Made by a program: the position numbers and the translations under genes. From the IMG/VR virus record IMGVR_UViG_3300038475_000107, positions 1-27,257 of that record: a stretch of 27,257 bases of DNA. One strand, given 5' to 3'. Positions 7,219 through 23,655 of this stretch are shown piece after piece. Below the pieces are notes generated by a model. It searched no databases. It was not told the origin of the DNA and saw only the letters and a list, made by a program, of their open reading frames with translations. This DNA comes from a virus. Lineage: Duplodnaviria; Caudoviricetes. Numbering within the stretch: the first letter of the stretch is position 1; the number at the start of each line of letters is the position of its first letter.

Positions 7219-7256
7219 GATAGGCGGATCACATGGCGACGAACGACGGCAATTCG
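7187..7256 (+). repeat. 20-bp direct repeat across a gene junction
   Basis: CGACGAACGACGGCAATTCG at 7187-7206 and 7237-7256. Both copies encode TNDGNS. Confidence 0.9.
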
Positions 7257-10200
7257 ATATTCAACGAATTCAATTTTCACAATGCAGACGACGACACGCA
7301 GTCGGCTCGTTACACCGGTGAAACTGTAAACTACAGCGACCTTGTTTCGAAGATTCGATATCGAGACCACGCCGGAAGCGATCAGTCTCGCAACGAAGTC
7401 GTCATGTTCGTCGACATACGTCTGTTCGTCATGGGCGTCGAGGTGTCTAACTGGTTGATCGGCGACGTGTCGGTCACACGCGCCAAGGGCAGTACCGACG
7501 GAACTATGTCATTCACGTTGGACAACAACTACGACCGCTTCATCATCCGTCCCGAAAATCTAGGGGGCGATACTCCGGGGTACGATTTCAACCAAGACCC
7601 GTCTAAAGGGGTGCCCAAGATCAACATCCCGACCGGTGCCAAGAACCGTTGGATCGAGAGCTCTGGAAACCAGAAGCGCGGCACGTTCGAGTACGACGAA
7701 GAAGCCAAGAAGAAGTTATACGCGTACAAGTCGCCTCAGACAATTACCGGCAAGAATCTCAAGAAGTCCGCCGGCGATACCAACACGACCAGCCAGACGT
7801 TGCCGAAGTTCGACTTGACGATCGGCGCATGCGTGATACATCTTCACGACGAGGTGCGCGCCTTCGTCGCCGACCCAAATCACGACCCGATGAACGACGC
7901 AGACCGACGTTGGATGCCTTTGTTTTCCGGCGTCGTCAGTTCGGCTCCAGTCTCACGCAATCGGATGACCGGCGAGAGTACGATCACCGTTTCATGTTCT
8001 GACGTGCGCTATCTTATGCGTAAGATGCGTGTCGCGACGAACATCCAGTCGGCGGACCAGAAGAAGATGATGGTCGCCTTCGACGAACCGATCGGAATTT
8101 TCCGTGACTGCATCGTACTGTCAGCGGCGGAAGAAGGTAAAGTCAAGTTCGAGAATTCTCTGTCGAATTACAGTTATCGTCAACTCACGCGTGCGTTGAC
8201 CTGCGGCGACACGATTCAAGATGTGCAAGACGGCGATGCTTATAACAAAAACAGCGGCAGCACCGTCGATTTCATGGATTTGAAGCATAACGTCGATCCA
8301 TATGTCGGCAAGCCGAAAGCGCATCAGGGAAGTTCGGACGCGACGGTCAGCACCGGCATCGGTGGTTTTTCTATCGGTCTTGAGATCGGCTTTTCACCGG
8401 CGAAGACCGTTGCCCAGATCACAGACACGGTCACCCTCGCGGCTGAACAGAGTTCAGAGCACAAGCAAGCCTTGGTAACTGCTATTGTCAAACTTCAAAC
8501 CGACGTTGCGTCCATTTCAGACTATCTCAACAACACAGCTGCGACGGATCCGTTGTCAAGTGCGATCAACCGTGCTCTTGCCGTCGCGAATACGATCACG
8601 ACGGCGACGGCCGACAATCATGACAATTCTACAGTCACAGTACTTGATCAACAGATTTCGAGCTTGCAGAGCATCGTCTCAGAGATCTCGAAGCTGTTTC
8701 CATCAGTGCAGAGTCAGCTAAGCGCATCGGCACAGAAGGCGAAAAAAGTAGCAGCGACTGAGAGCGCGACTGATACGTCGTCCACGTCAACAAGTGCAGG
8801 TCAGACAAAAGAGAAAGCCAACGCGAACAAAGCGGCCGATGTCTTGCCGACCGATGTTCAGAACGTGTCTGATTTGGCGACAAAGGTGAAGGACGAGGCG
8901 TCCTCGACTTTGAACAAGCAGACCATCGCGTCAGACGCGTCAACCCAGCGCACGGCAAATATCAGCACGCTCGAAGACTGGAACGATATGGTGGTGTTCG
9001 GCGCCAAGCGCGACTGGTATACCGACTGGGAAGTCGACGTGATCGGATCTAACACCCGACCGATCATGTACTTGACCGAATCGGCCGAATCGAACGTCGA
9101 CGCGGACAAGGCCTCTCCGTCGCCGCACTCGGTCTTGAACGGATTCGTGCACTATCTCATGCCCGACAAGGTCACCGGAGCACTCGGCATACGAAATGCG
9201 ATCGAACAGGCGCTGGTGACACCCGACGTGAACTGGACGAACCGGTTGGATGCCTTGGCACAGGCGTCCGAGACGATCGACTACCAGTTCTACGTCACCC
9301 CGATGGGCGACATCGCGTTCGAGTTTCCGATGTACGACTTCGATCCGACGCTTTTCGGCAAGTTCGCCGCATGCTATGTCGTACGCGACTCGATCAAGTC
9401 CGACGAGCACAACGACGAGGGAGACGGCAATGTCGTGACGGGGTTAGTCGTGCGCGGTGCATATCAGTCCGCTGAGAAGGGATCAAATACACCGACGAGC
9501 GACACCGCTCAAGACCAGGCATATTCGTACATTGTGAAGTCCGATTTCATGGCCGAGAAATACGGACCAGTCGTTGAGGAATACTCGATCCCCTGGCATC
9601 ACAAGGTATGGGCGGACGGCAAGGAAGACGATGCGCGCGAGAAGAACTCGTTGATCACGTTCGGCATCATCGAATTCTATCGACGCATCGCCGCAATGTC
9701 GTCGATGGGTTTCTCCGGGTGCTACAACCCGTTTCTGCTGCCGAACCGACCAGTGCTCAACCTTTTGCAACGTCGCATGGCACTGACGACCAGCTGTCAG
9801 CTCTCGATTCCGATCGGAGGGGCTCCCAGCAGCAGCGTCGACACGTACTTCGTACGCAAGGCTGACCAGGACGGAAAGTTCATCTCGATCACCGGGCAAT
9901 CGAATACACCGTTCAGTTACGGGAATGCCGACTATCTCGATCTGTTCACGAATACCGACTTGGCCAATATCCGTACCCCGTACGGGATCGAACTGATCGA
10001 CCCGCGCAGCAGCATGGTGCAAGAGATCGACAAACAGCTTACGTCGAGTCAGCTTGGGGTCAACACCTCGTTCGACAACTATTCGACGAATTCTACCTAC
10101 GATGCGAATAAGAAAAAGTGGAATACGCTTCAACAATCAAATCCGAAGCTAGCCGCAGCCATTACGAATGCAGCCAAAAATTCTAGAAACATGGATCCGA

Positions 10201-10709
10201 TGGTGCTTTACACCATCATGAATCATGAAAGTTCTATGAATGCAAAGGCATACAATGGTGCGGGCGGCGTTGGTCATTACGGTGTGATTCAAATTTCGGC
10301 TACTAACTTGCTTAAGATGAACGTCGATCCGAACACGTTTTACCAGAAGTATCCAACAGTCGAGTCGCAACTTAGTTTGGTTTCTCAGTATTATCGAATG
10401 ATTACAAAGCAAGATTTAAGCAACCCCGTAAAGGCGCTTGCCGCCACGTTTTGTCCAGCTTCACTGACTAACGGTGAAGGACCGTCTACGGTATTGAGTG
10501 CGAAAGCTCAAGCGGCTAATCCCGGATTCGTCATAATGAATGATTATTCGAAAGCATCTGGATACGACTGCTCAGTCGGCTCGACAAATTCATCGACTAC
10601 AGCCGCTCTTCCGGCCTCTACCACTACAACTGGGCTTCAAGTCACGCTGAACACCTCGAAATCGGCGTCTGACAACACAACTACGCATACTACCGGGAGT
10701 CATAAGTAA
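7233..10709 (+). CDS. Baseplate hub-like protein with C-terminal lytic transglycosylase (SLT/lysozyme-like) domain, 1158 aa
   Basis: Hub-like patterns (MSFTLDN, LFSGVVSS, ITVSCSDVRYLM, YQFYVTPMGDIAFEFPMYDF, NPFLLPNRPV). C-terminal IMNHESSMNAKA...YGVIQ carries the SLT catalytic Glu and GxxQ motif. Followed by a spike-like gene. Confidence 0.75.
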   Translation: MATNDGNSIFNEFNFHNADDDTQSARYTGETVNYSDLVSKIRYRDHAGSDQSRNEVVMFVDIRLFVMGVEVSNWLIGDVSVTRAKGSTDGTMSFTLDNNYDRFIIRPENLGGDTPGYDFNQDPSKGVPKINIPTGAKNRWIESSGNQKRGTFEYDEEAKKKLYAYKSPQTITGKNLKKSAGDTNTTSQTLPKFDLTIGACVIHLHDEVRAFVADPNHDPMNDADRRWMPLFSGVVSSAPVSRNRMTGESTITVSCSDVRYLMRKMRVATNIQSADQKKMMVAFDEPIGIFRDCIVLSAAEEGKVKFENSLSNYSYRQLTRALTCGDTIQDVQDGDAYNKNSGSTVDFMDLKHNVDPYVGKPKAHQGSSDATVSTGIGGFSIGLEIGFSPAKTVAQITDTVTLAAEQSSEHKQALVTAIVKLQTDVASISDYLNNTAATDPLSSAINRALAVANTITTATADNHDNSTVTVLDQQISSLQSIVSEISKLFPSVQSQLSASAQKAKKVAATESATDTSSTSTSAGQTKEKANANKAADVLPTDVQNVSDLATKVKDEASSTLNKQTIASDASTQRTANISTLEDWNDMVVFGAKRDWYTDWEVDVIGSNTRPIMYLTESAESNVDADKASPSPHSVLNGFVHYLMPDKVTGALGIRNAIEQALVTPDVNWTNRLDALAQASETIDYQFYVTPMGDIAFEFPMYDFDPTLFGKFAACYVVRDSIKSDEHNDEGDGNVVTGLVVRGAYQSAEKGSNTPTSDTAQDQAYSYIVKSDFMAEKYGPVVEEYSIPWHHKVWADGKEDDAREKNSLITFGIIEFYRRIAAMSSMGFSGCYNPFLLPNRPVLNLLQRRMALTTSCQLSIPIGGAPSSSVDTYFVRKADQDGKFISITGQSNTPFSYGNADYLDLFTNTDLANIRTPYGIELIDPRSSMVQEIDKQLTSSQLGVNTSFDNYSTNSTYDANKKKWNTLQQSNPKLAAAITNAAKNSRNMDPMVLYTIMNHESSMNAKAYNGAGGVGHYGVIQISATNLLKMNVDPNTFYQKYPTVESQLSLVSQYYRMITKQDLSNPVKALAATFCPASLTNGEGPSTVLSAKAQAANPGFVIMNDYSKASGYDCSVGSTNSSTTAALPASTTTTGLQVTLNTSKSASDNTTTHTTGSHK

Positions 10710-13235: not shown

Positions 13236-14870
13236 ATGGCCGAACGCAGATATTCAGAAACAGAACTCGCCGTCCTCGATCGGTTTTTCACGGGGGTACC
13301 GACTCTTGCGCACGTGTACGCCGCGAAGCATACGTTGCCGATGCCGATGTGGGCTTTTCTGACTGGGAGCTATTCTCGTTCGGCTCTGACCATGCGCGAG
13401 AAGTTCTTGAGCACGATCAAGGAACTGGAAGGCGCCGACCGATACGATTTCGTGATCGAAGAACTGGCGATCGGACATAGTGACTTTTTCGACAAGTTCA
13501 TCACACGCGCCGAGAAGTTTCTCTCCAAATGGTCGGTAGAATACGGCCATTCGAGCCTCAAGGATTCCTGTACCGATCGATTCGCGGTCGAAGGCGTTTC
13601 GATCTTCGGTGCCAAGCTGTTAGAATGGCCGACACTCGGGGCATACCAGGAAAAATCCACGAGATACGCGGACTTCAGCAAGGTCGACTTCGTCACCCTG
13701 TTCTTGCCGGACGGCGCCGATCCGTCTGTCTTCCAGAAGGCCTTGAACGCCTATCAAGTCGTATTCGAGAGCGCGTTCAATGCATTCTACGAGACAGTGG
13801 ACATTCCCGACGCGACCGTGCGCAGCCGTACGGCTCGTGCCAAGGCGTTCGACATCGCCCGGTACATGCTTCCCGTTTCGACTCCGACATCTCTGGGGAT
13901 CACGATTCCGTCTCGTGAGACCGAGCGGTTGATCTCGGATCTGCTCTCGTCTCCGTTCGACGAAGCACAGTCGATCGGTCGGCAATTGGCGACGGCCGGA
14001 CAAGAGGTGAACCCGGCGTTGCTCACTCACATTTCAGCTCGGGAATCCGGCACGATCGTGACCCGTTTGGCCGAATGGCCGGAGACGATCTCGGACCGTT
14101 TCCCGCTTCCGTATCCGGGGTTGCACGACGTGTTAGGGCATGTTGCGACCGGCACCGACGTCGGCGCAACATGCCGAGCCGGAGGCACGACGCTTCAGAC
14201 CGAAACCGAACAAAACAGCACGCATCCGCGTTGGTTGGCCACTGCGTCTGGTCTAGTCGAGAAGTACAGCCTTCAGCAATTCCTGTTGATCGGTCTGGCC
14301 TCGGCGCTCTCGGTCGACCCGACGAGGTTGCAAGACCACGTCGATGCGATCTTCGAAAACCGCGGCGAGAAGGAAGCCGTCCCGGCCGGACTTGGCGTCG
14401 GACAGCTGATCTTCTCCGGGTTCATCGACTTCGGAGCCTATCGCGATTTGCAACGACACCGTCGTGGATTCCAGTTCAAACTGCAACCGACGATCCGTTT
14501 CGGATATCAGCTTCCGGAATTCATCGTCGAATGCGACGACTTGCTTCAGGTCTGCGAAGAGGCGATCGAAGCGATCGAAGCGGAGCACCGCAAGACAGGA
14601 TCCGAATACTTCACATTGCTCGCGCACAACGTCCAGTTCACGTATATCTGCACGGTCGAACAGGCCATCTATCTCATCGAACTTCGCACGTCACCGGCCG
14701 GACACGTCTCGTATCGACACTTTGCACAAGATATGGCCAAGTGCTTGTTCCAAGCGTTCCCGGAACTCGAAAAGCACGTTCGCGTCTGTTGGGACAACGA
14801 CACGGACCGGCGTCAACAGGAGGAGATTCGTCAGCGCAAGCTGAAGGTCGCTCACGATGACAAACAATGA
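13236..14870 (+). CDS. thyX: FAD-dependent thymidylate synthase, tandem two-domain form, 544 aa
   Basis: N-domain YGHSS, QEKSTRY, AFDIARYMLP. C-domain DFGAYRDLQRHR, IELRTSPAGHVSYR. AGGAG SD. Confidence 0.92.
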   Translation: MAERRYSETELAVLDRFFTGVPTLAHVYAAKHTLPMPMWAFLTGSYSRSALTMREKFLSTIKELEGADRYDFVIEELAIGHSDFFDKFITRAEKFLSKWSVEYGHSSLKDSCTDRFAVEGVSIFGAKLLEWPTLGAYQEKSTRYADFSKVDFVTLFLPDGADPSVFQKALNAYQVVFESAFNAFYETVDIPDATVRSRTARAKAFDIARYMLPVSTPTSLGITIPSRETERLISDLLSSPFDEAQSIGRQLATAGQEVNPALLTHISARESGTIVTRLAEWPETISDRFPLPYPGLHDVLGHVATGTDVGATCRAGGTTLQTETEQNSTHPRWLATASGLVEKYSLQQFLLIGLASALSVDPTRLQDHVDAIFENRGEKEAVPAGLGVGQLIFSGFIDFGAYRDLQRHRRGFQFKLQPTIRFGYQLPEFIVECDDLLQVCEEAIEAIEAEHRKTGSEYFTLLAHNVQFTYICTVEQAIYLIELRTSPAGHVSYRHFAQDMAKCLFQAFPELEKHVRVCWDNDTDRRQQEEIRQRKLKVAHDDKQ

Positions 14871-18248: not shown

Positions 18249-21200
18249 GTGAGTGATTCCAATTTGCAAATCAATACAGTTGCGTTAGACGGAACCCCCT
18301 GGGTGCCGTTGGTCGTCGCCGGTCGCAAGGCCTTTCGTCGTCCGATCCCTTCGGACGTGCTGGTGCTGTTGCCTACCTCGACGTCTCTCGATCTCATGCA
18401 AGATCCGACTGTGCTCTGGATCTGCAAGAATCTTCGCGCCGTGCTCGGCGAACGTCAATTTGCCGTCGAGGCCGTACTTCACTCACAGCCGTTTCGCGGA
18501 CACGAATTGGTCGAAGACCTGTCGAAACAGAAACGGCGCATCGGAAACTTGTTTCGGACATATCGACCGAAGGTCGTGCTGGTCGTCGGACCGGAATTGA
18601 TCCGCATCTTGAAGCCGACGGTCGCGACTCGGTCGAACGCTAACATCGTCGGCTACGTACATCCGCTCGAGTTCGGGGACAAGGCCGTCGCCGTCTGCGT
18701 TCCGTATTTGCACGACCGCCAGTACGTGTTGCGCAACATCGACGAGATCTCGGTCGACTTCGCCAAAGTGCCGTTCATGCTCGACAATCCGAACGCGCAC
18801 AAGGAAGGCACGATCATCAAACTCGACACCGACAAGTCGGCGAACGAGTACATCGACTTCTTGCTGAACGACCACAAGGGATACCTGGCCTACGATACGG
18901 AAACGCGAAACCGAAACAAACGGTATCACAACCGTCTGGCCAGTATGCAGTTCGCGACCGATACCGAGACCAGTTACGTCCTGTACTGGAACCACGATTA
19001 CAACAACCGTAGTCGCGAGCATGACAAGTTAGTACTTCGGCCGAAGCTGCGTAAGATCTTCGGCGGCTATTCGAAGATCGCTGGTTTGATCGCACATTAC
19101 GCGGTATTCGATATCTCGAGCACTCGGATGGAGTTCGATATCGACTATTGGGGGATCCGGACTTACGATACTGTCTTGATCACACATCTGCTCGACCAGA
19201 ATCGTCAGCGTGACGATCGGATCACGAAACCGTTGCCCGGTGCCAAACCGCACGAGTTGAAACAACTTGTCAATGAGTTCTTCGCATACGACGGATACGA
19301 GGCCGAGACGAAGGCGGCGCGAAAAGACGGAAGCCTCATCGACCTTCCGGAACCACGACTGACTAAATACGCCGGACAGGACGGTTTCGCCGAATATCGG
19401 ATCTTCAAATTCCTGTTGCATTGGGCCAAGACGCTCGGGCGACTTGACGACATCATGCGTTTCTCTAACACGGTGCATGCACGTGCAATCCGGACCTTTC
19501 AGAACATGTCGTACAACGGCATGCTGGTCGATCTCGACTACATCGAGGCATTGGAACGGCCGGACTCGATCATCAACCGAGAGATCCAGTCGGTCAAAGA
19601 CAAGTTCAAGTCGGATCCGGTCGCGATCCGTGTGAACGAGGCACTGTTGCGCAAGAAGACGAATGCGTCTCACTTCTGGCAGATCCCGTGGGTGTTCGAC
19701 ATCGCGAAGCCGGCTTCCAAATTCATGCTGTTCTACGACAAGGAAGTCGGACTCGGGTTAGAGCCGCTTCCCGATCCGAAGAAACCAGAGGAGAAACCGA
19801 AGTCGTCATGCGACGACCATTTCCAGCAGCATTATGCGAAGATTCCGCAGGTCAAATGGCTTACTGAATTCTCCGAAGTCGAGAAGTTGCGCAACACGTA
19901 TGTTTCGAAGATGGGCGCCGCGATTCGAAACGCAAACCGTGACAAAACAGATCTTGCAGATGGTCGTGTACACCCAGATTACAACTTGAACGGCACTGAT
20001 ACTGGTCGACTTTCATGCATCGCAGATGGTTCGATAGTCGATGTCGAAGATTCAAATACGTTCGAATGGCGACAGGTCGAGATAGAAAATGTCAAAGAGG
20101 GCGATCGGGTCTATTGTTATACAGACTTAGGTCAGCCGACTACTCGTGAGGTGAAATGGGCTGGCAAGACCGGTGAGAAACGCTGCATGAAACTGTCTTG
20201 GGAAGGAGACGACCGAAATGGTTATCTCTACCTGACAGATGATCATGAAGTGAACACAGTCCATCATGGCTGGGTTCCAGCATGTGAACTAGTTGAAGGC
20301 GAACAGATCTATGCAATACTTCCGTATTACGGCATCCCGATAAAACAGAAAGTCAAATTAAGATCGGTCGAGGAAGATCTCATTCGAAATGTGTATTGTC
20401 TTGTCGTTGATGATGTGCACAATTTCATCGCCAATGGCATTTGTGTCAAAAATTGTACCAAGCCCAATTTACAACAGATCCCGCGTGCCGACAACGATTT
20501 CAAGAAGGCGGTCAAGAATACATTCATCACACCTCCCGGCACGTGTATCGTCCAGGCCGACTTTTGCGCAGCCGAAGTGCGCATGTGGGGATCACTCAGT
20601 CAAGATGCCTTCTTATGCGAATTGCTGACTAACGCGTTCAACAAGCGCGCCGCATACCGTGCCAACCCGACCGACAAGAAGTTGGAGGAAGATGCGATGC
20701 TCATGGGCGACGTCCATAAGCAGACCGCATCGCTCATGTTCGGCGTCACACTCAAGGAAGTGACAAAGGCTCTTCGCACTGTCACAAAGGGCATCACGTT
20801 CGGATTGATCTATGGTCGCGGCGAACGCTCGATCGCCGAACAGCTTGACAAGTCTGAACAAGAGACGCATGAACTGTGCCAGAAGTTCTTCGCCCAATTC
20901 CCAGAGGGAGTTGCCTGGCTCGAGGAACAGAAACGTTTTGTCCAGCAACACCATTACATCGAGACGCCGTTCAAGCGTCGCCGTTATCTTCCTTGGATAA
21001 ACGATCTCGACCGTAAGCTTCAGTCGTCCGCGTTGCGTCAGTCGATCAATTCTCCGGTGCAATCAGCGGCCGGAGATTTTGCAACTCTTTCTATCTCACT
21101 TCTGGACGAAGAACTCCACAAGCGCCGTTTGTCGAAGCACTTCAAGTTGACGAACGCGGTGCACGATTCGACTCTAGTCGAGGCCCCGGCATCTGCCGAT

Positions 21201-21554
21201 GCGTTGGCCGAGATCGTACCGATCATCCGTCAATGCTTCACGATCCGGTCACGCGACATCGTACAGAACGTATTCGGTTTCGAGACCAAGGCACCGATGG
21301 ACATCGACATCGAAGTATCGCAACGCAAGGCCTGGCACTGTACCAAGTGCGGTCATACTTACAAGTACTACAAGTCAAAATGTGACAAAACGATCCTCGG
21401 CGACGACAAGAAGCCGTTGATCGACAAGAACGGAGACGAGATCAAGTGCGCGCACACCGAGCGCAGCTTGGTCAAGTTGAACGGAGGCTGGGGAACCCTG
21501 ATCGCGCTGGACGAAACTATGTCTGGTTATCGGGAAGCCGCCTCGGGCTTTTAG
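18249..21554 (+). CDS. polA: Family A DNA polymerase with UDG-like N-domain, 3'-5' exonuclease and intein, 1101 aa precursor
   Basis: Exonuclease YDTET, AHYAVFD, YAGQD. Polymerase TGRLS/PNLQQIP, motif A ADFCAAEVR, motif B KGITFGLIYG, NSPVQS, motif C VHDS. Confidence 0.95.
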   Translation: MSDSNLQINTVALDGTPWVPLVVAGRKAFRRPIPSDVLVLLPTSTSLDLMQDPTVLWICKNLRAVLGERQFAVEAVLHSQPFRGHELVEDLSKQKRRIGNLFRTYRPKVVLVVGPELIRILKPTVATRSNANIVGYVHPLEFGDKAVAVCVPYLHDRQYVLRNIDEISVDFAKVPFMLDNPNAHKEGTIIKLDTDKSANEYIDFLLNDHKGYLAYDTETRNRNKRYHNRLASMQFATDTETSYVLYWNHDYNNRSREHDKLVLRPKLRKIFGGYSKIAGLIAHYAVFDISSTRMEFDIDYWGIRTYDTVLITHLLDQNRQRDDRITKPLPGAKPHELKQLVNEFFAYDGYEAETKAARKDGSLIDLPEPRLTKYAGQDGFAEYRIFKFLLHWAKTLGRLDDIMRFSNTVHARAIRTFQNMSYNGMLVDLDYIEALERPDSIINREIQSVKDKFKSDPVAIRVNEALLRKKTNASHFWQIPWVFDIAKPASKFMLFYDKEVGLGLEPLPDPKKPEEKPKSSCDDHFQQHYAKIPQVKWLTEFSEVEKLRNTYVSKMGAAIRNANRDKTDLADGRVHPDYNLNGTDTGRLSCIADGSIVDVEDSNTFEWRQVEIENVKEGDRVYCYTDLGQPTTREVKWAGKTGEKRCMKLSWEGDDRNGYLYLTDDHEVNTVHHGWVPACELVEGEQIYAILPYYGIPIKQKVKLRSVEEDLIRNVYCLVVDDVHNFIANGICVKNCTKPNLQQIPRADNDFKKAVKNTFITPPGTCIVQADFCAAEVRMWGSLSQDAFLCELLTNAFNKRAAYRANPTDKKLEEDAMLMGDVHKQTASLMFGVTLKEVTKALRTVTKGITFGLIYGRGERSIAEQLDKSEQETHELCQKFFAQFPEGVAWLEEQKRFVQQHHYIETPFKRRRYLPWINDLDRKLQSSALRQSINSPVQSAAGDFATLSISLLDEELHKRRLSKHFKLTNAVHDSTLVEAPASADALAEIVPIIRQCFTIRSRDIVQNVFGFETKAPMDIDIEVSQRKAWHCTKCGHTYKYYKSKCDKTILGDDKKPLIDKNGDEIKCAHTERSLVKLNGGWGTLIALDETMSGYREAASGF
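20016..20453 (+). mobile_element. Mini-intein (146 aa, no homing endonuclease) in PolA
   Basis: Interrupts GRLS|CTKPNLQ. Begins CIADGS, block B LTDDH, ends VDDVHNFIANGICVKN with Cys at +1. Confidence 0.93.
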
Positions 21555-21669: not shown

Positions 21670-21957
21670 ATGTCAGTTGACATCAAGTCCAAGATCGCCG
21701 AAATCAAGGCCGCCGCATCCAAGAAGACTTCCGACCTGAAGGCCAAGATCACCGGCGTCAAGACCGACTCGGCCAAGAAGATCGCCGATCTGAAGGCAAA
21801 GGCCGCTGGCGCCAAGGCTCCCAAGACCGTGAAGGCCCTCAAGGTCGCCGCACCCAAGGTCGTGAAGGCTCCCAAGGCCCCGGCGGCTCCTGTGTCCAAG
21901 GCTCCGGCTCTGAAGGTCCCCAAGGCCCCCAAGCTGCCCAAGGCTCCTCGCCTCTGA
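21670..21957 (+). CDS. Histone H1-like Lys/Ala/Pro-rich basic protein, 95 aa
   Basis: GGAG SD before ATG 21670. 24 Lys versus 5 acidic residues by hand count, KAP repeats, capsid-like codon bias. Confidence 0.8.
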   Translation: MSVDIKSKIAEIKAAASKKTSDLKAKITGVKTDSAKKIADLKAKAAGAKAPKTVKALKVAAPKVVKAPKAPAAPVSKAPALKVPKAPKLPKAPRL

Positions 21958-21982: not shown

Positions 21983-22017
21983 GGGCCTGTAGGCGTCACA
22001 ACCTACAGGCCCTTTTT
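21983..22017 (+). terminator. Rho-independent terminator
   Basis: GGGCCTGTAGG and CCTACAGGCCC form a perfect 11-bp stem with an 8-nt loop, then TTTTT. Confidence 0.92.
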
Positions 22018-22062: not shown

Positions 22063-22416
22063 ATGTCCGATTCCAGCTTGCCTGAATCAGAGGGGAACCG
22101 TATTCCCAGACCTCGTCCCAGGAGCGACCGGCAACCTCGAAACGAAACGTTCGTAGACGGACCGCGTGGTCCGATTCGCACGTCTCAACCTGAAGAGGAT
22201 ACTCTTCAACGAGACCTCGTATATGCACGTGAGCACGGCCATGCCCCGGTACGTACTCGAATCGCAAACAACCTGTTGGATGAATCGTCCTTCGCGGTGC
22301 TTGTTCGGATCGATCAGCTTGTCGTGTTGCGCGAGCGGTTGAACGACGACAAGTTCGTGCTCGACGAAATCGAGCGGCTCTTCACGAATCAATTTTCGGA
22401 TACCCTCGGGAGATAG
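22063..22416 (+). CDS. Hypothetical protein, 117 aa
   Basis: AGGAGG SD. Disordered N-half and helical C-half. Confidence 0.7.
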   Translation: MSDSSLPESEGNRIPRPRPRSDRQPRNETFVDGPRGPIRTSQPEEDTLQRDLVYAREHGHAPVRTRIANNLLDESSFAVLVRIDQLVVLRERLNDDKFVLDEIERLFTNQFSDTLGR

Positions 22417-22419
22417 ACG

Positions 22420-22506
22420 ATGCGTAACGGATTCACATTGATCGAACTTGCCGTCGTACTCGGCATTTTGTCAATACCAGCCGGCACCGTCCATTTCATC
22501 GGATGA
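22420..22506 (+). CDS. Mini type IV prepilin-like peptide, 28 aa (not in ORF track)
   Basis: MRNG|FTLIELAVVLGILSIPAGTVHFIG*. GGAG SD 7 nt upstream. Its stop forms ATGA with the next ORF. Confidence 0.75.
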   Translation: MRNGFTLIELAVVLGILSIPAGTVHFIG

Positions 22507-22688
22507 AGTTCGCTGACGGTTTTGTCGAAGCTTGCGCGATGCTCGCCGACCAGCCATACGATCAGCCGACGTTGGCATCGTCGCTGATTCGAGACGCCGG
22601 GATGGTCGACGCGTTGAAAAACACGAAGTCGGACCATCGCGGCATCAAGATCTTGAAACAACAATTGTTGACAAGGAGCACGACATGA
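22503..22688 (+). CDS. Hypothetical protein, 61 aa
   Basis: ATGA overlaps at both ends. Confidence 0.65.
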   Translation: MKFADGFVEACAMLADQPYDQPTLASSLIRDAGMVDALKNTKSDHRGIKILKQQLLTRSTT

Positions 22689-22963
22689 TCGAGAAGACAT
22701 TTTGCAAGAAATGTGGTTCGGACGTCGAAATCGAAATCCCATACATTCGATGGGACAAGCCCTGTCGTTTCGTCGTGAAGTTGTACGGTAATCGCAACGC
22801 AAAGAACCAAGGTTTCGGCGAGCACCAGACGCTCGGGATCGTCGCGTACGATATCGGATCGGTCGCCAAAGCGGCACAGGAGAAATATCCGATGCTGCGC
22901 ATCGAGTCGATCGTCGACACTGACGCGGTCGATCTTGTACTCGATTTCCCGACCGTCGGCTAA
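22685..22963 (+). CDS. Hypothetical protein with N-terminal CxxC, 92 aa
   Basis: AAGGAG SD and ATG 22685 (MIEKTFCKKCGS...). Confidence 0.7.
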   Translation: MIEKTFCKKCGSDVEIEIPYIRWDKPCRFVVKLYGNRNAKNQGFGEHQTLGIVAYDIGSVAKAAQEKYPMLRIESIVDTDAVDLVLDFPTVG

Positions 22964-22992: not shown

Positions 22993-23655
22993 ATGACGTT
23001 CATCCGCCTCAAAAGTTCTTCGTTCTATTTCCGACTGTCAGATCATGAGAAGAAATGCTACAACGCCGGGCTTCCGATTCGGTATACGAGCAAGAACATC
23101 CATGATCTCACCTTCGCACCATATCTGATCGGTGAGCGCAAGCGCGTTACAGCTCAACGACAAGAAGACGGGTTGTCGAACTTCATCACAAAGCTTCATG
23201 TCAATTCCGGTTTCAACGGGATCATGGCATTTCATTCAGCACCGACCGACGAGGCCGCGTTTCAAGCCGCCGCGTCGATCTTCGAGAGTGCCATCGAGCG
23301 TGGATTTGCATGCCGTTGTCTGTCGACATCGCAGCTTCTTGCAAAAGATCCGATCGGCGCCTGTGACGTCTATCTCGTGCACGGAGTCAACGATTTGCCG
23401 AACCCACAGGTCATCTGGGCGTTACGCGATTTCATGCGTGATCGTGACGGATCGCTTCGTATGCTGGTGATGACCAGCGGAAAGGAACTGGCGTTGGACG
23501 TGCTGATACACGAGCAGCTGCGTATGCACTGTGATTTCTTGTTCTGCCTCCAAGACGAAGCGTCGACTATCGAAGCTGATTATCGTGCAAAACCCGTCTC
23601 GGCGTCCGGCACGATCCCAAAGCCGTCGAATGCGTATCGTCGGGTAAGGACCTGA
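22993..23655 (+). CDS. Degenerate DnaC/IstB-like AAA+ protein (putative helicase loader), 220 aa
   Basis: AGLPIRY, AAASI...ERGFACRCLS, DVYLV and LVMTS follow the DnaC layout, but the Walker motifs are eroded. Directly upstream of dnaB. Confidence 0.55.
   Translation: MTFIRLKSSSFYFRLSDHEKKCYNAGLPIRYTSKNIHDLTFAPYLIGERKRVTAQRQEDGLSNFITKLHVNSGFNGIMAFHSAPTDEAAFQAAASIFESAIERGFACRCLSTSQLLAKDPIGACDVYLVHGVNDLPNPQVIWALRDFMRDRDGSLRMLVMTSGKELALDVLIHEQLRMHCDFLFCLQDEASTIEADYRAKPVSASGTIPKPSNAYRRVRT

Follow-up and report, generated by a model that had tools for sequence, protein, structure and literature searches.

Type IV pili drive motility and DNA uptake and are major phage receptors. A leader ending in Gly, Phe+1, Glu+5 and a largely hydrophobic tract of about 21 residues are shared by type IV prepilins and the pseudopilins of type II secretion, and many of them, though not all, carry Pro22. 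Such class III signals are inserted leader-inside and cut after Gly-1 by prepilin peptidase, with leaders of 6-26 residues and with Glu5 needed for assembly and not for cleavage (PMC4471445, available excerpts). As far as available extracts of the literature go, described phage inhibitors of this machinery target PilB or PilC or take the place of FimU, and short pilin-like peptides are only proposed to act. Thus six Nankokuvirus phages, KPP10 and G1 among them, carry truncated PilA-like proteins (P-PilA) of 59-65 residues, for which the accessible part of PMC12952977 proposes either incorporation without phage-binding sites or blocked assembly. The superinfection-exclusion or jamming idea has already been put forward in print for phage forms of 59-65 residues, and both the headless phage pilin as a kind and the hypothesis attached to it are known. 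P-PilA resembles the peptide described here in joining a prepilin signal and helix without a head in a virulent phage, but differs in its long polar tail (~30 residues) after the helix (the mature form of G1 gp026 has 53 residues) and in having no HFI; P-FimU is a full-length protein with which pili stay functional. A further comparator is PfsE of Pf4, a 30-residue inner-membrane peptide with its N-terminus inside and a conserved aromatic cluster, which requires aromatic residues, interacts with PilC, and blocks both pili and the phages that depend on them (PMC8764522, in the portion available); its YXWGW motif is absent in our peptide, and the likeness is one of analogy only.

Shorter forms occur in cultured phages. 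A GFTLIEL-type start was found in 121 viral loci, 70 of which have the stop in view, and the mature form has at most 40 residues in 7 of these and at most 80 in 27; Aeromonas phage Ah1 is one of the short-form loci. A headless prepilin of 27-31 residues follows nrdB in seven phages, namely Aeh1, Ah1, AsFcp_2, avDM12-TAAL, PX29, phiAS5 and phiWae14, but is annotated in only two of the seven records, since GenBank describes Aeh1 ORF040c (AAQ17699.1, 28 residues) and PX29p038 (31 residues) as similar to a pilin N-terminus and leaves the 27-28-residue orthologues of Ah1, AsFcp_2, avDM12-TAAL, phiAS5 and phiWae14 without annotation. Among four Aeh1-type phages the variable codons comprise 4 synonymous and 2 non-synonymous ones, and it is supported that headless prepilins are selected genes in other phages, the Aeromonas T4-like ones. 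These genes share with ours a mature form of 24-26 residues, a very short basic leader (3 residues in the Aeh1 type and 4 in ours, below the published 6-26), Gly-1, Phe1 and Glu5, a large lytic phage as carrier and, in most, overlap coupling to a neighbor. They differ in their place after nrdB in T4-like phages, in keeping Pro21/22 and a strong helix (hydropathy 2.40-2.63 in the six Aeromonas peptides of 27-31 residues that are listed) and in having no HFI, and tblastn with our peptide did not reach them at E 10. Because phage and host are both cultured, the Aeromonas gene is the better experimental lead.

The window analyzed here, that is, the whole stretch of DNA, is an entire virus record of 27,257 bases, in which the gene of interest is laid out as follows:

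22408-22412, plus strand: Shine-Dalgarno-like GGAGA (-7.4 kcal/mol), overlapping the end of a 117-residue gene
22420-22506, plus strand: ORF of a 28-residue headless prepilin-like peptide, likely an eroded copy from the HFIxKFW phage micro-peptide family
22420-22431, plus strand: basic leader of 4 residues, with Arg, ending in Gly-1
22432-22491, plus strand: mature residues 1-20, with Phe+1, Glu+5, 15 uncharged residues after Glu5, and Pro+16; four residues shorter than in the family member at viral locus L281
22492-22503, plus strand: His-Phe-Ile-Gly, probably equivalent to tail residues 1-4 of the family, with the stop where the family has Lys-Phe-Trp

The ORF at 22420-22506 (plus strand, 28 codons, TGA stop) encodes MRNGFTLIELAVVLGILSIPAGTVHFIG. 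Its description as an open reading frame with a Shine-Dalgarno sequence and stop-start coupling was borne out: GGAGA pairs with the anti-Shine-Dalgarno motif at -7.4 kcal/mol (the 22 genes scored run from -1.4 to -10.8), the stop overlaps the ATG of a 61-residue ORF, and the stop of the latter overlaps the ATG of a 92-residue ORF. The anti-Shine-Dalgarno motif and the hydropathy scale values used for scoring are ones we assume to be correct. The prepilin signal, likewise claimed in the initial annotation, was confirmed by both profile models named there for checking it, as the peptide scores 27.6 bits with PF07963 (cut-off 21.2, E 2e-06) and 28 bits with TIGR02532 (cut-off 16.3), and with 15 uncharged residues after Glu5 it satisfies the PilFind rule, which asks for 14; PHROGs 13280 and 10597, both short and of unknown function, match weakly. 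The GFTLIEL codon pattern has one exact match in the window and two with at most two mismatches, against 0.11 expected from 100 shuffles, and the prepilin motif is thus not there by chance; a prepilin HMM run over the six frames of the window found no second prepilin ORF.

The codon adaptation of the ORF, 0.63, falls inside the in-frame range: in-frame 28-codon pieces (n=220) average 0.72 +/- 0.09, with 18% as low as the ORF, and out-of-frame pieces (n=214) average 0.51 +/- 0.07, with 5% as high. That we are looking at a chance frame, or at a membrane peptide whose pilin likeness means nothing, is nevertheless worth stating as the least probable of our readings, a very slim chance: its codon adaptation does lie in the lower fifth of in-frame pieces, and its residues 16-24 alone fit the profile of ordinary prepilins no better than random sequence (p 0.17), but against this stand the E value of 2e-06 to PF07963, a Shine-Dalgarno sequence and start that are rightly placed, and, near the end of the peptide, another motif independent of the prepilin signal. 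TGA is the stop of 16 of the 23 long genes checked, so that the TGA of the ORF is a true stop; recoding was rejected on the same count, TGA being the usual stop in this phage. Beyond it the frame stays open for only 26 more codons, which bear no resemblance by eye to a pilin head, and other frames do no better, in agreement with the earlier statement that read-through yields no head. The predicted mature form therefore has 24 residues and, unlike pilins and pseudopilins, is without the C-terminal half of helix 1, the beta-meander globular head and Pro22.

The same 24 residues are odd for a prepilin N-terminus. Their hydropathy of 1.80 (1.94 for the best 19 residues) is matched by none of 89 distinct viral prepilin N-termini (2.45 +/- 0.27) and by none of 115 bacterial N-termini with the same starting residues (2.33 +/- 0.18), so that of the short signal and helix initially annotated the signal stands and the helix is atypically weak, the lowest in hydropathy of 204 N-termini. 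Pro16 breaks into a stretch, residues 11-20, in which none of the 115 bacterial N-termini has Pro; position 22 holds the first Pro in 87 of 107 viral N-termini and in 47 of 116 bacterial ones, and position 16 in none, whereas our peptide has His21 and Phe22. Gly11 and Ser14, both present here, occur in 2 and none, respectively, of the 89 ordinary viral prepilins. Two simple repairs were considered. A frameshift inside the helix was rejected, with the annotated frame scoring best at nearly every split point tested, and a six-codon deletion that moved Pro22 to 16 is unsupported, as 24-27% of shuffled tails reach the best gapped scores.

A peptide of this kind could act through its class III signal alone, as a working minimal decoy that would occupy the peptidase, be taken into the growing filament and stall it, or mimic membrane pilin at the sensor PilS and so turn off transcription of pilin. 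This is the chief competitor of the reading preferred below, a possibility we regard as real but rather doubtful. It would fit the intact signal, the Shine-Dalgarno sequence and coupling, the PilFind pass, a helical register that is kept (see below), a mature length of 24 residues as in the short forms of phiAS5 and phiWae14, the codon conservation of the Aeh1-type gene, and a report, available to us in part, that slowed PilD processing leads to prepilin build-up, PilS feedback and phage resistance (PMC13170266). It sits poorly with Pro16, the missing Pro22 and the hydropathy of 1.80, where the Aeromonas short forms keep Pro21/22 and 2.40-2.63; with a secondary account, itself seen in extract, that P22A breaks the PilA-PilS contact (bioRxiv 2022.05.13.491915); with the failure of tblastn to connect the peptide to the Aeromonas genes; and with its tail, which points to another family.

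That family came to light through the end of the peptide. A joint pattern of prepilin start and KFW gave 30 loci, of which 26 were dropped as chance or out-of-frame matches, and 4 encode headless prepilins ending in HFIxKFW. The tail pattern by itself gave 120 listed loci out of an estimated 220 or so stored stretches, and in 81-82 of the 120 listed a stop directly follows KFW, against about 22 expected. This excess, together with the aromatic position described next, shows that the HFIxKFW family is real. The KFW-stop ending is found at 86 loci, and after removal of 12 with no hydrophobic stretch, 74 remain that encode at least 63 distinct peptides. Among the 63 distinct members listed, from viral contigs L281, L282, L286, L292 and L297-L416, 18 bear a prepilin-like signal and 45 do not, and Tyr, Trp or Phe stands four places before the His in 56, a position left free in the search pattern. 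The aromatic residue is also kept in 41 of the 45 leaderless members listed, which keep helix and tail; their pre-helix charge is positive in 30 of 45 and negative in 7, which fits an N-terminus inside. In signal-bearing members the His lies at mature position 24 (3 members), 25 (4), 28 (10) or 32 (1), positions that fall within a 100-degree arc (100-200 degrees) from Glu5 (p about 0.05), and stop-start overlap directly after KFW occurs in 17 of the 74 loci. When 24 members and the window peptide were scanned, Pfam, PHROGs and NCBIfam held no model covering the tail across members; matches of these 25 sequences were mainly to the prepilin start and, in the PDB, to pilin N-termini only. We found no description of the window peptide or of the tail family in the open-licence literature of PubMed Central and bioRxiv.

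Two members come from cultured phages, a 37-residue unannotated peptide of Aeromonas phage vB_AdhS_TS3 and a 42-residue one of Aeromonas phage Ahp1_CNU-2021 with the tail HFVTKYW. We also noted gp32 of Xanthomonas phage Xoo-sp13 (L419:586-732), a 48-residue prepilin-like protein with a divergent tail, whose annotation as "major head protein" is probably wrong, and a prepilin-start ORF at locus L055 that stops after 14 mature residues and is probably another broken copy.

The window peptide ends in Val-His-Phe-Ile-Gly, placing HFI at mature residues 21-23, a motif found in none of 230 ordinary prepilin N-termini and expected there by chance at about 8e-4, as judged by how often it turns up in the six frames of the window. 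The best alignment of residues 11-24 is to L281 (score 31, against 26 for the best of 226 ordinary prepilins), sharing Gly11, Ser14 and Gly18 across a single 4-residue gap that spans the Gly-Tyr block, with the last three residues absent. The initial view that the peptide is only a signal and an assembly helix is thus not supported, its C-terminus being the HFI of the HFIxKFW family, with which it also has in common the prepilin signal, the single helix, the near-C-terminal position of His-Phe-Ile and the Glu5-His register (160 degrees, inside the family's arc). It differs in having His at 21 and not at 24, 25, 28 or 32, in its helix Pro, in an Ala in place of the aromatic residue four places before the His, and in the stop after HFIG in place of KFW, a residue triplet that the search patterns themselves imposed. 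The eight residues before the His score -6.3 on the family profile, where members score 12.9 +/- 4.4 and none of the 63 is as low, and the family HMM gives the peptide only 11 bits. Since two defining features fail, we do not count the window gene as an intact member, and since KFW is fixed by the search patterns, natural members with no KFW are uncountable and the alignment score is partly circular.

From these alignments, the peptide is likely a homologous clipped copy, one that probably lost about four internal codons and KFW; stop-start overlap after KFW in 17 of 74 loci would make a short deletion to the next start a path to the present junction. That the gene is, in full, an eroded copy of the HFIxKFW family is our preferred reading, which we hold with about even confidence, and the decoy initially envisaged, taken as an optimized one, is not supported for this copy, which has lost two family features and whose helix is weaker than any in the 89 viral and 115 bacterial N-termini compared. 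Counter to erosion, the Shine-Dalgarno sequence, start, Gly-1, Phe1 and Glu5 are all intact, and an in-frame internal shortening that keeps the Glu5-His register could mean selection. In a tentative reading along these lines, which we would not rate as probable, the window gene is the shortest step (His at 21) of an HFIxKFW series whose helix changes in whole turns and in which about three in ten members add the leader so that host peptidase and assembly machinery carry the inhibitor to its target; HFIxKFW would then be an undescribed membrane-interface motif by which a large family of phage peptides shuts down type IV filament machines, and the window gene a natural allele separating pilin-mimic from tail function.

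The surroundings of the ORF are listed here in order:

21983-22012, plus strand: terminator-like hairpin (11-pair stem, T tail; consensus match only) upstream of the run of 117-, 28-, 61- and 92-residue ORFs
22063-22416, plus strand: conserved 117-residue gene, left flank, 33-43% identical in relatives
22417-22963, plus strand: three-gene accessory insert (28, 61 and 92 residues), flanked on both sides by a conserved gene and missing from two related phages
22503-22688, plus strand: 61-residue ORF whose start overlaps the peptide's stop, a stand-alone C-terminal module of longer hypothetical proteins and not a pilin head
22685-22963, plus strand: 92-residue ORF with one CxxC, for which only near-identical (96-98%) strain variants are known
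22993-23655, plus strand: conserved 220-residue gene before DnaB, right flank, 50-52% identical in relatives

The phage is, by protein identity, a PaBG/Lu11-like jumbo phage and uncultured: Pseudomonas jumbo phages HRDY3, Lu11 and PaBG and their Erwinia and Burkholderia kin have major capsid proteins 30-34% identical to its own, and its DnaB is 26-29% identical to those of this group. A DnaB alignment search gave one viral and three metagenome loci that represent two uncultured phages (L004 and L005 lie on one contig, and L006 and L007 are nearly identical), with DnaB identities of 67% and 51%; a scan with DnaB by itself and scans with alignments of the 92-residue ORF and of the 61-residue module confirmed none. 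Both relatives keep the order polymerase, 117-residue gene, 220-residue gene, DnaB, 395-residue gene, with a few dozen bases between the 117- and 220-residue homologues. As the 28-, 61- and 92-residue ORFs are missing between these flanks, they form an insert of about 550 bases in a replication operon, and one that is dispensable there. In the 278-kb record of the closer relative, which is 74% complete, nothing matches PF07963, either neighboring ORF or the tail pattern. A sigma-70-type promoter was not seen between 21400 and 23200 of the window, and pilus assembly genes are absent from the 27-kb contig, as had been reported for the vicinity of the ORF.

Several features of the same operon and contig are recorded in passing. 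A Lys/Ala/Pro-rich ORF of 95 residues (21670-21957) follows the polymerase and is 49% identical in L004, with no match in L006 or L007 and no library match; we take it to be histone-H1-like, and the terminator-like hairpin comes next. The primase and 220-residue genes are each closely preceded by a shared motif, CTTGTAAA or TTTGTAAA, a possible phage promoter (window about 2763 and 22975), which recurs in the same place in L004 (about 7299) and has a similar counterpart before the polymerase. Around residues 593-735 the family A DNA polymerase (18249-21554) carries an intein-like insert (weak PF14890); L004 has no such insert, and L006 has a longer one in this region. The N-terminal half of a 544-residue protein (13236-14870) holds a Thy1 (ThyX) domain, and an SLT transglycosylase domain lies near the end of a 1158-residue protein (7233-10709).

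The neighbors had been suggested as partners of the peptide, a suggestion that the data do not favor. Six matches to the 61-residue ORF, less two repeat artefacts (P0023 and P0027) and one self match, leave three longer and unrelated hypothetical proteins whose C-terminal module is 50-56% identical to it. These proteins (P0024, P0025 and P0026) are mosaics with modules apparently bounded by short Val/Ile-Pro linkers, and the last of these modules is what the window ORF encodes in free-standing form. Neither neighbor occurs in 412 short loci (flanks of 300-700 bases) around other prepilin or family genes, tblastn of the two against cultured phages gave E values of 0.4-0.6 only, and ESM Atlas look-ups of both gave leads under 0.9 only.

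The junction itself nonetheless raises the question of a split gene, in which a frameshift or assembly error would have separated the leader from the 61-residue ORF, the two forming one protein of about 89 residues with a small head. The 61-residue ORF has almost no Shine-Dalgarno sequence (-1.7), and its codons 2-3 read Lys and Phe, two bases past the peptide's last codon, as the family tail would continue, a match partly to be expected, since the family of the module itself conserves that Phe. In the long homologues the linker preceding the module matches Ile-Pro-Ala at p 0.005 for one offset, but at only 0.054 over 19 offsets, and this linker idea is weak and superseded by the HFI match. 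We judge a split improbable all the same, given a strain variant of the 61-residue ORF with the same length and start (48/61 identity), the exact 61-residue product on 3 recorded contigs, long homologues that by eye have no signal peptide, and no fused form of 33-144 residues among 199 candidates or 50% representatives. The variant and a DnaB variant (451/469 identity) both lie on a contig of 6,373 nt, so that we infer a single contig for them.

It is likewise distinctly unlikely that the ORF is the relic of a full-length phage or host pilin that has lost its globular head. Phages do carry pilin-like genes of 107-157 residues, and the prepilin ORFs of viral contigs grade continuously in length; on the other side, no other frame after residue 10 fits the prepilin profile better, the downstream ORFs have no pilin match, and the family matched by the tail is built without heads. 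Importantly, a full-length pilin at this place in relatives, which the initial annotation had named as grounds for a truncated relic, was looked for in the two relatives examined and found in neither. The window gene is most probably not the stub of a full-length pilin.

For intact HFIxKFW peptides we use PfsE as a working model, by analogy. Their aromatic, basic tail would lie on the outer side of the inner membrane and bind a membrane protein of the pilus machine, most likely the platform protein PilC as PfsE does, with PilD and PilS as alternatives. A tail that is constant next to a leader that is optional suggests that the tail is the likely binding determinant, and the absence of the leader from 45 of 63 members that it is an optional delivery tag; its presence in the other 18, together with the analogy, points to a type IV filament machine as target, although the leaderless 45 may mean that the target lies elsewhere than in this machine. 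The outcome would be fewer pili and an infected cell protected from pilus-binding phages, or, alternatively, a block of type II secretion. A feedback route has also been described, in which membrane pilin makes PilS shut off pilA (bioRxiv 10.1101/323923, as far as the accessible text goes); E5K or P22A reportedly breaks the pilin-PilS contact (bioRxiv 2022.05.13.491915).

The eroded window copy is predicted to be still made and cut. Having lost the Gly-Tyr block and KFW, it would likely bind the target weakly or not at all, and with neither Pro22 nor the tail it is likely weak on both the PilC and the PilS-feedback routes, but prepilin peptidase could still process it and be tied up by it for a short time. 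If active, this processed peptide of 24 residues would be about the smallest pilus inhibitor known. The family is thus a good lead and the window copy probably a weakened one, a poor lead compound and yet a useful natural control. The HFIxKFW family as a whole offers dozens of candidates of 30-45 residues, mostly under gene-calling limits, and its conserved tail, optional leader and members in cultured Aeromonas phages make the proposal directly testable. By analogy, we predict that this family, widespread among phages, would interfere with the host's pilus machinery.
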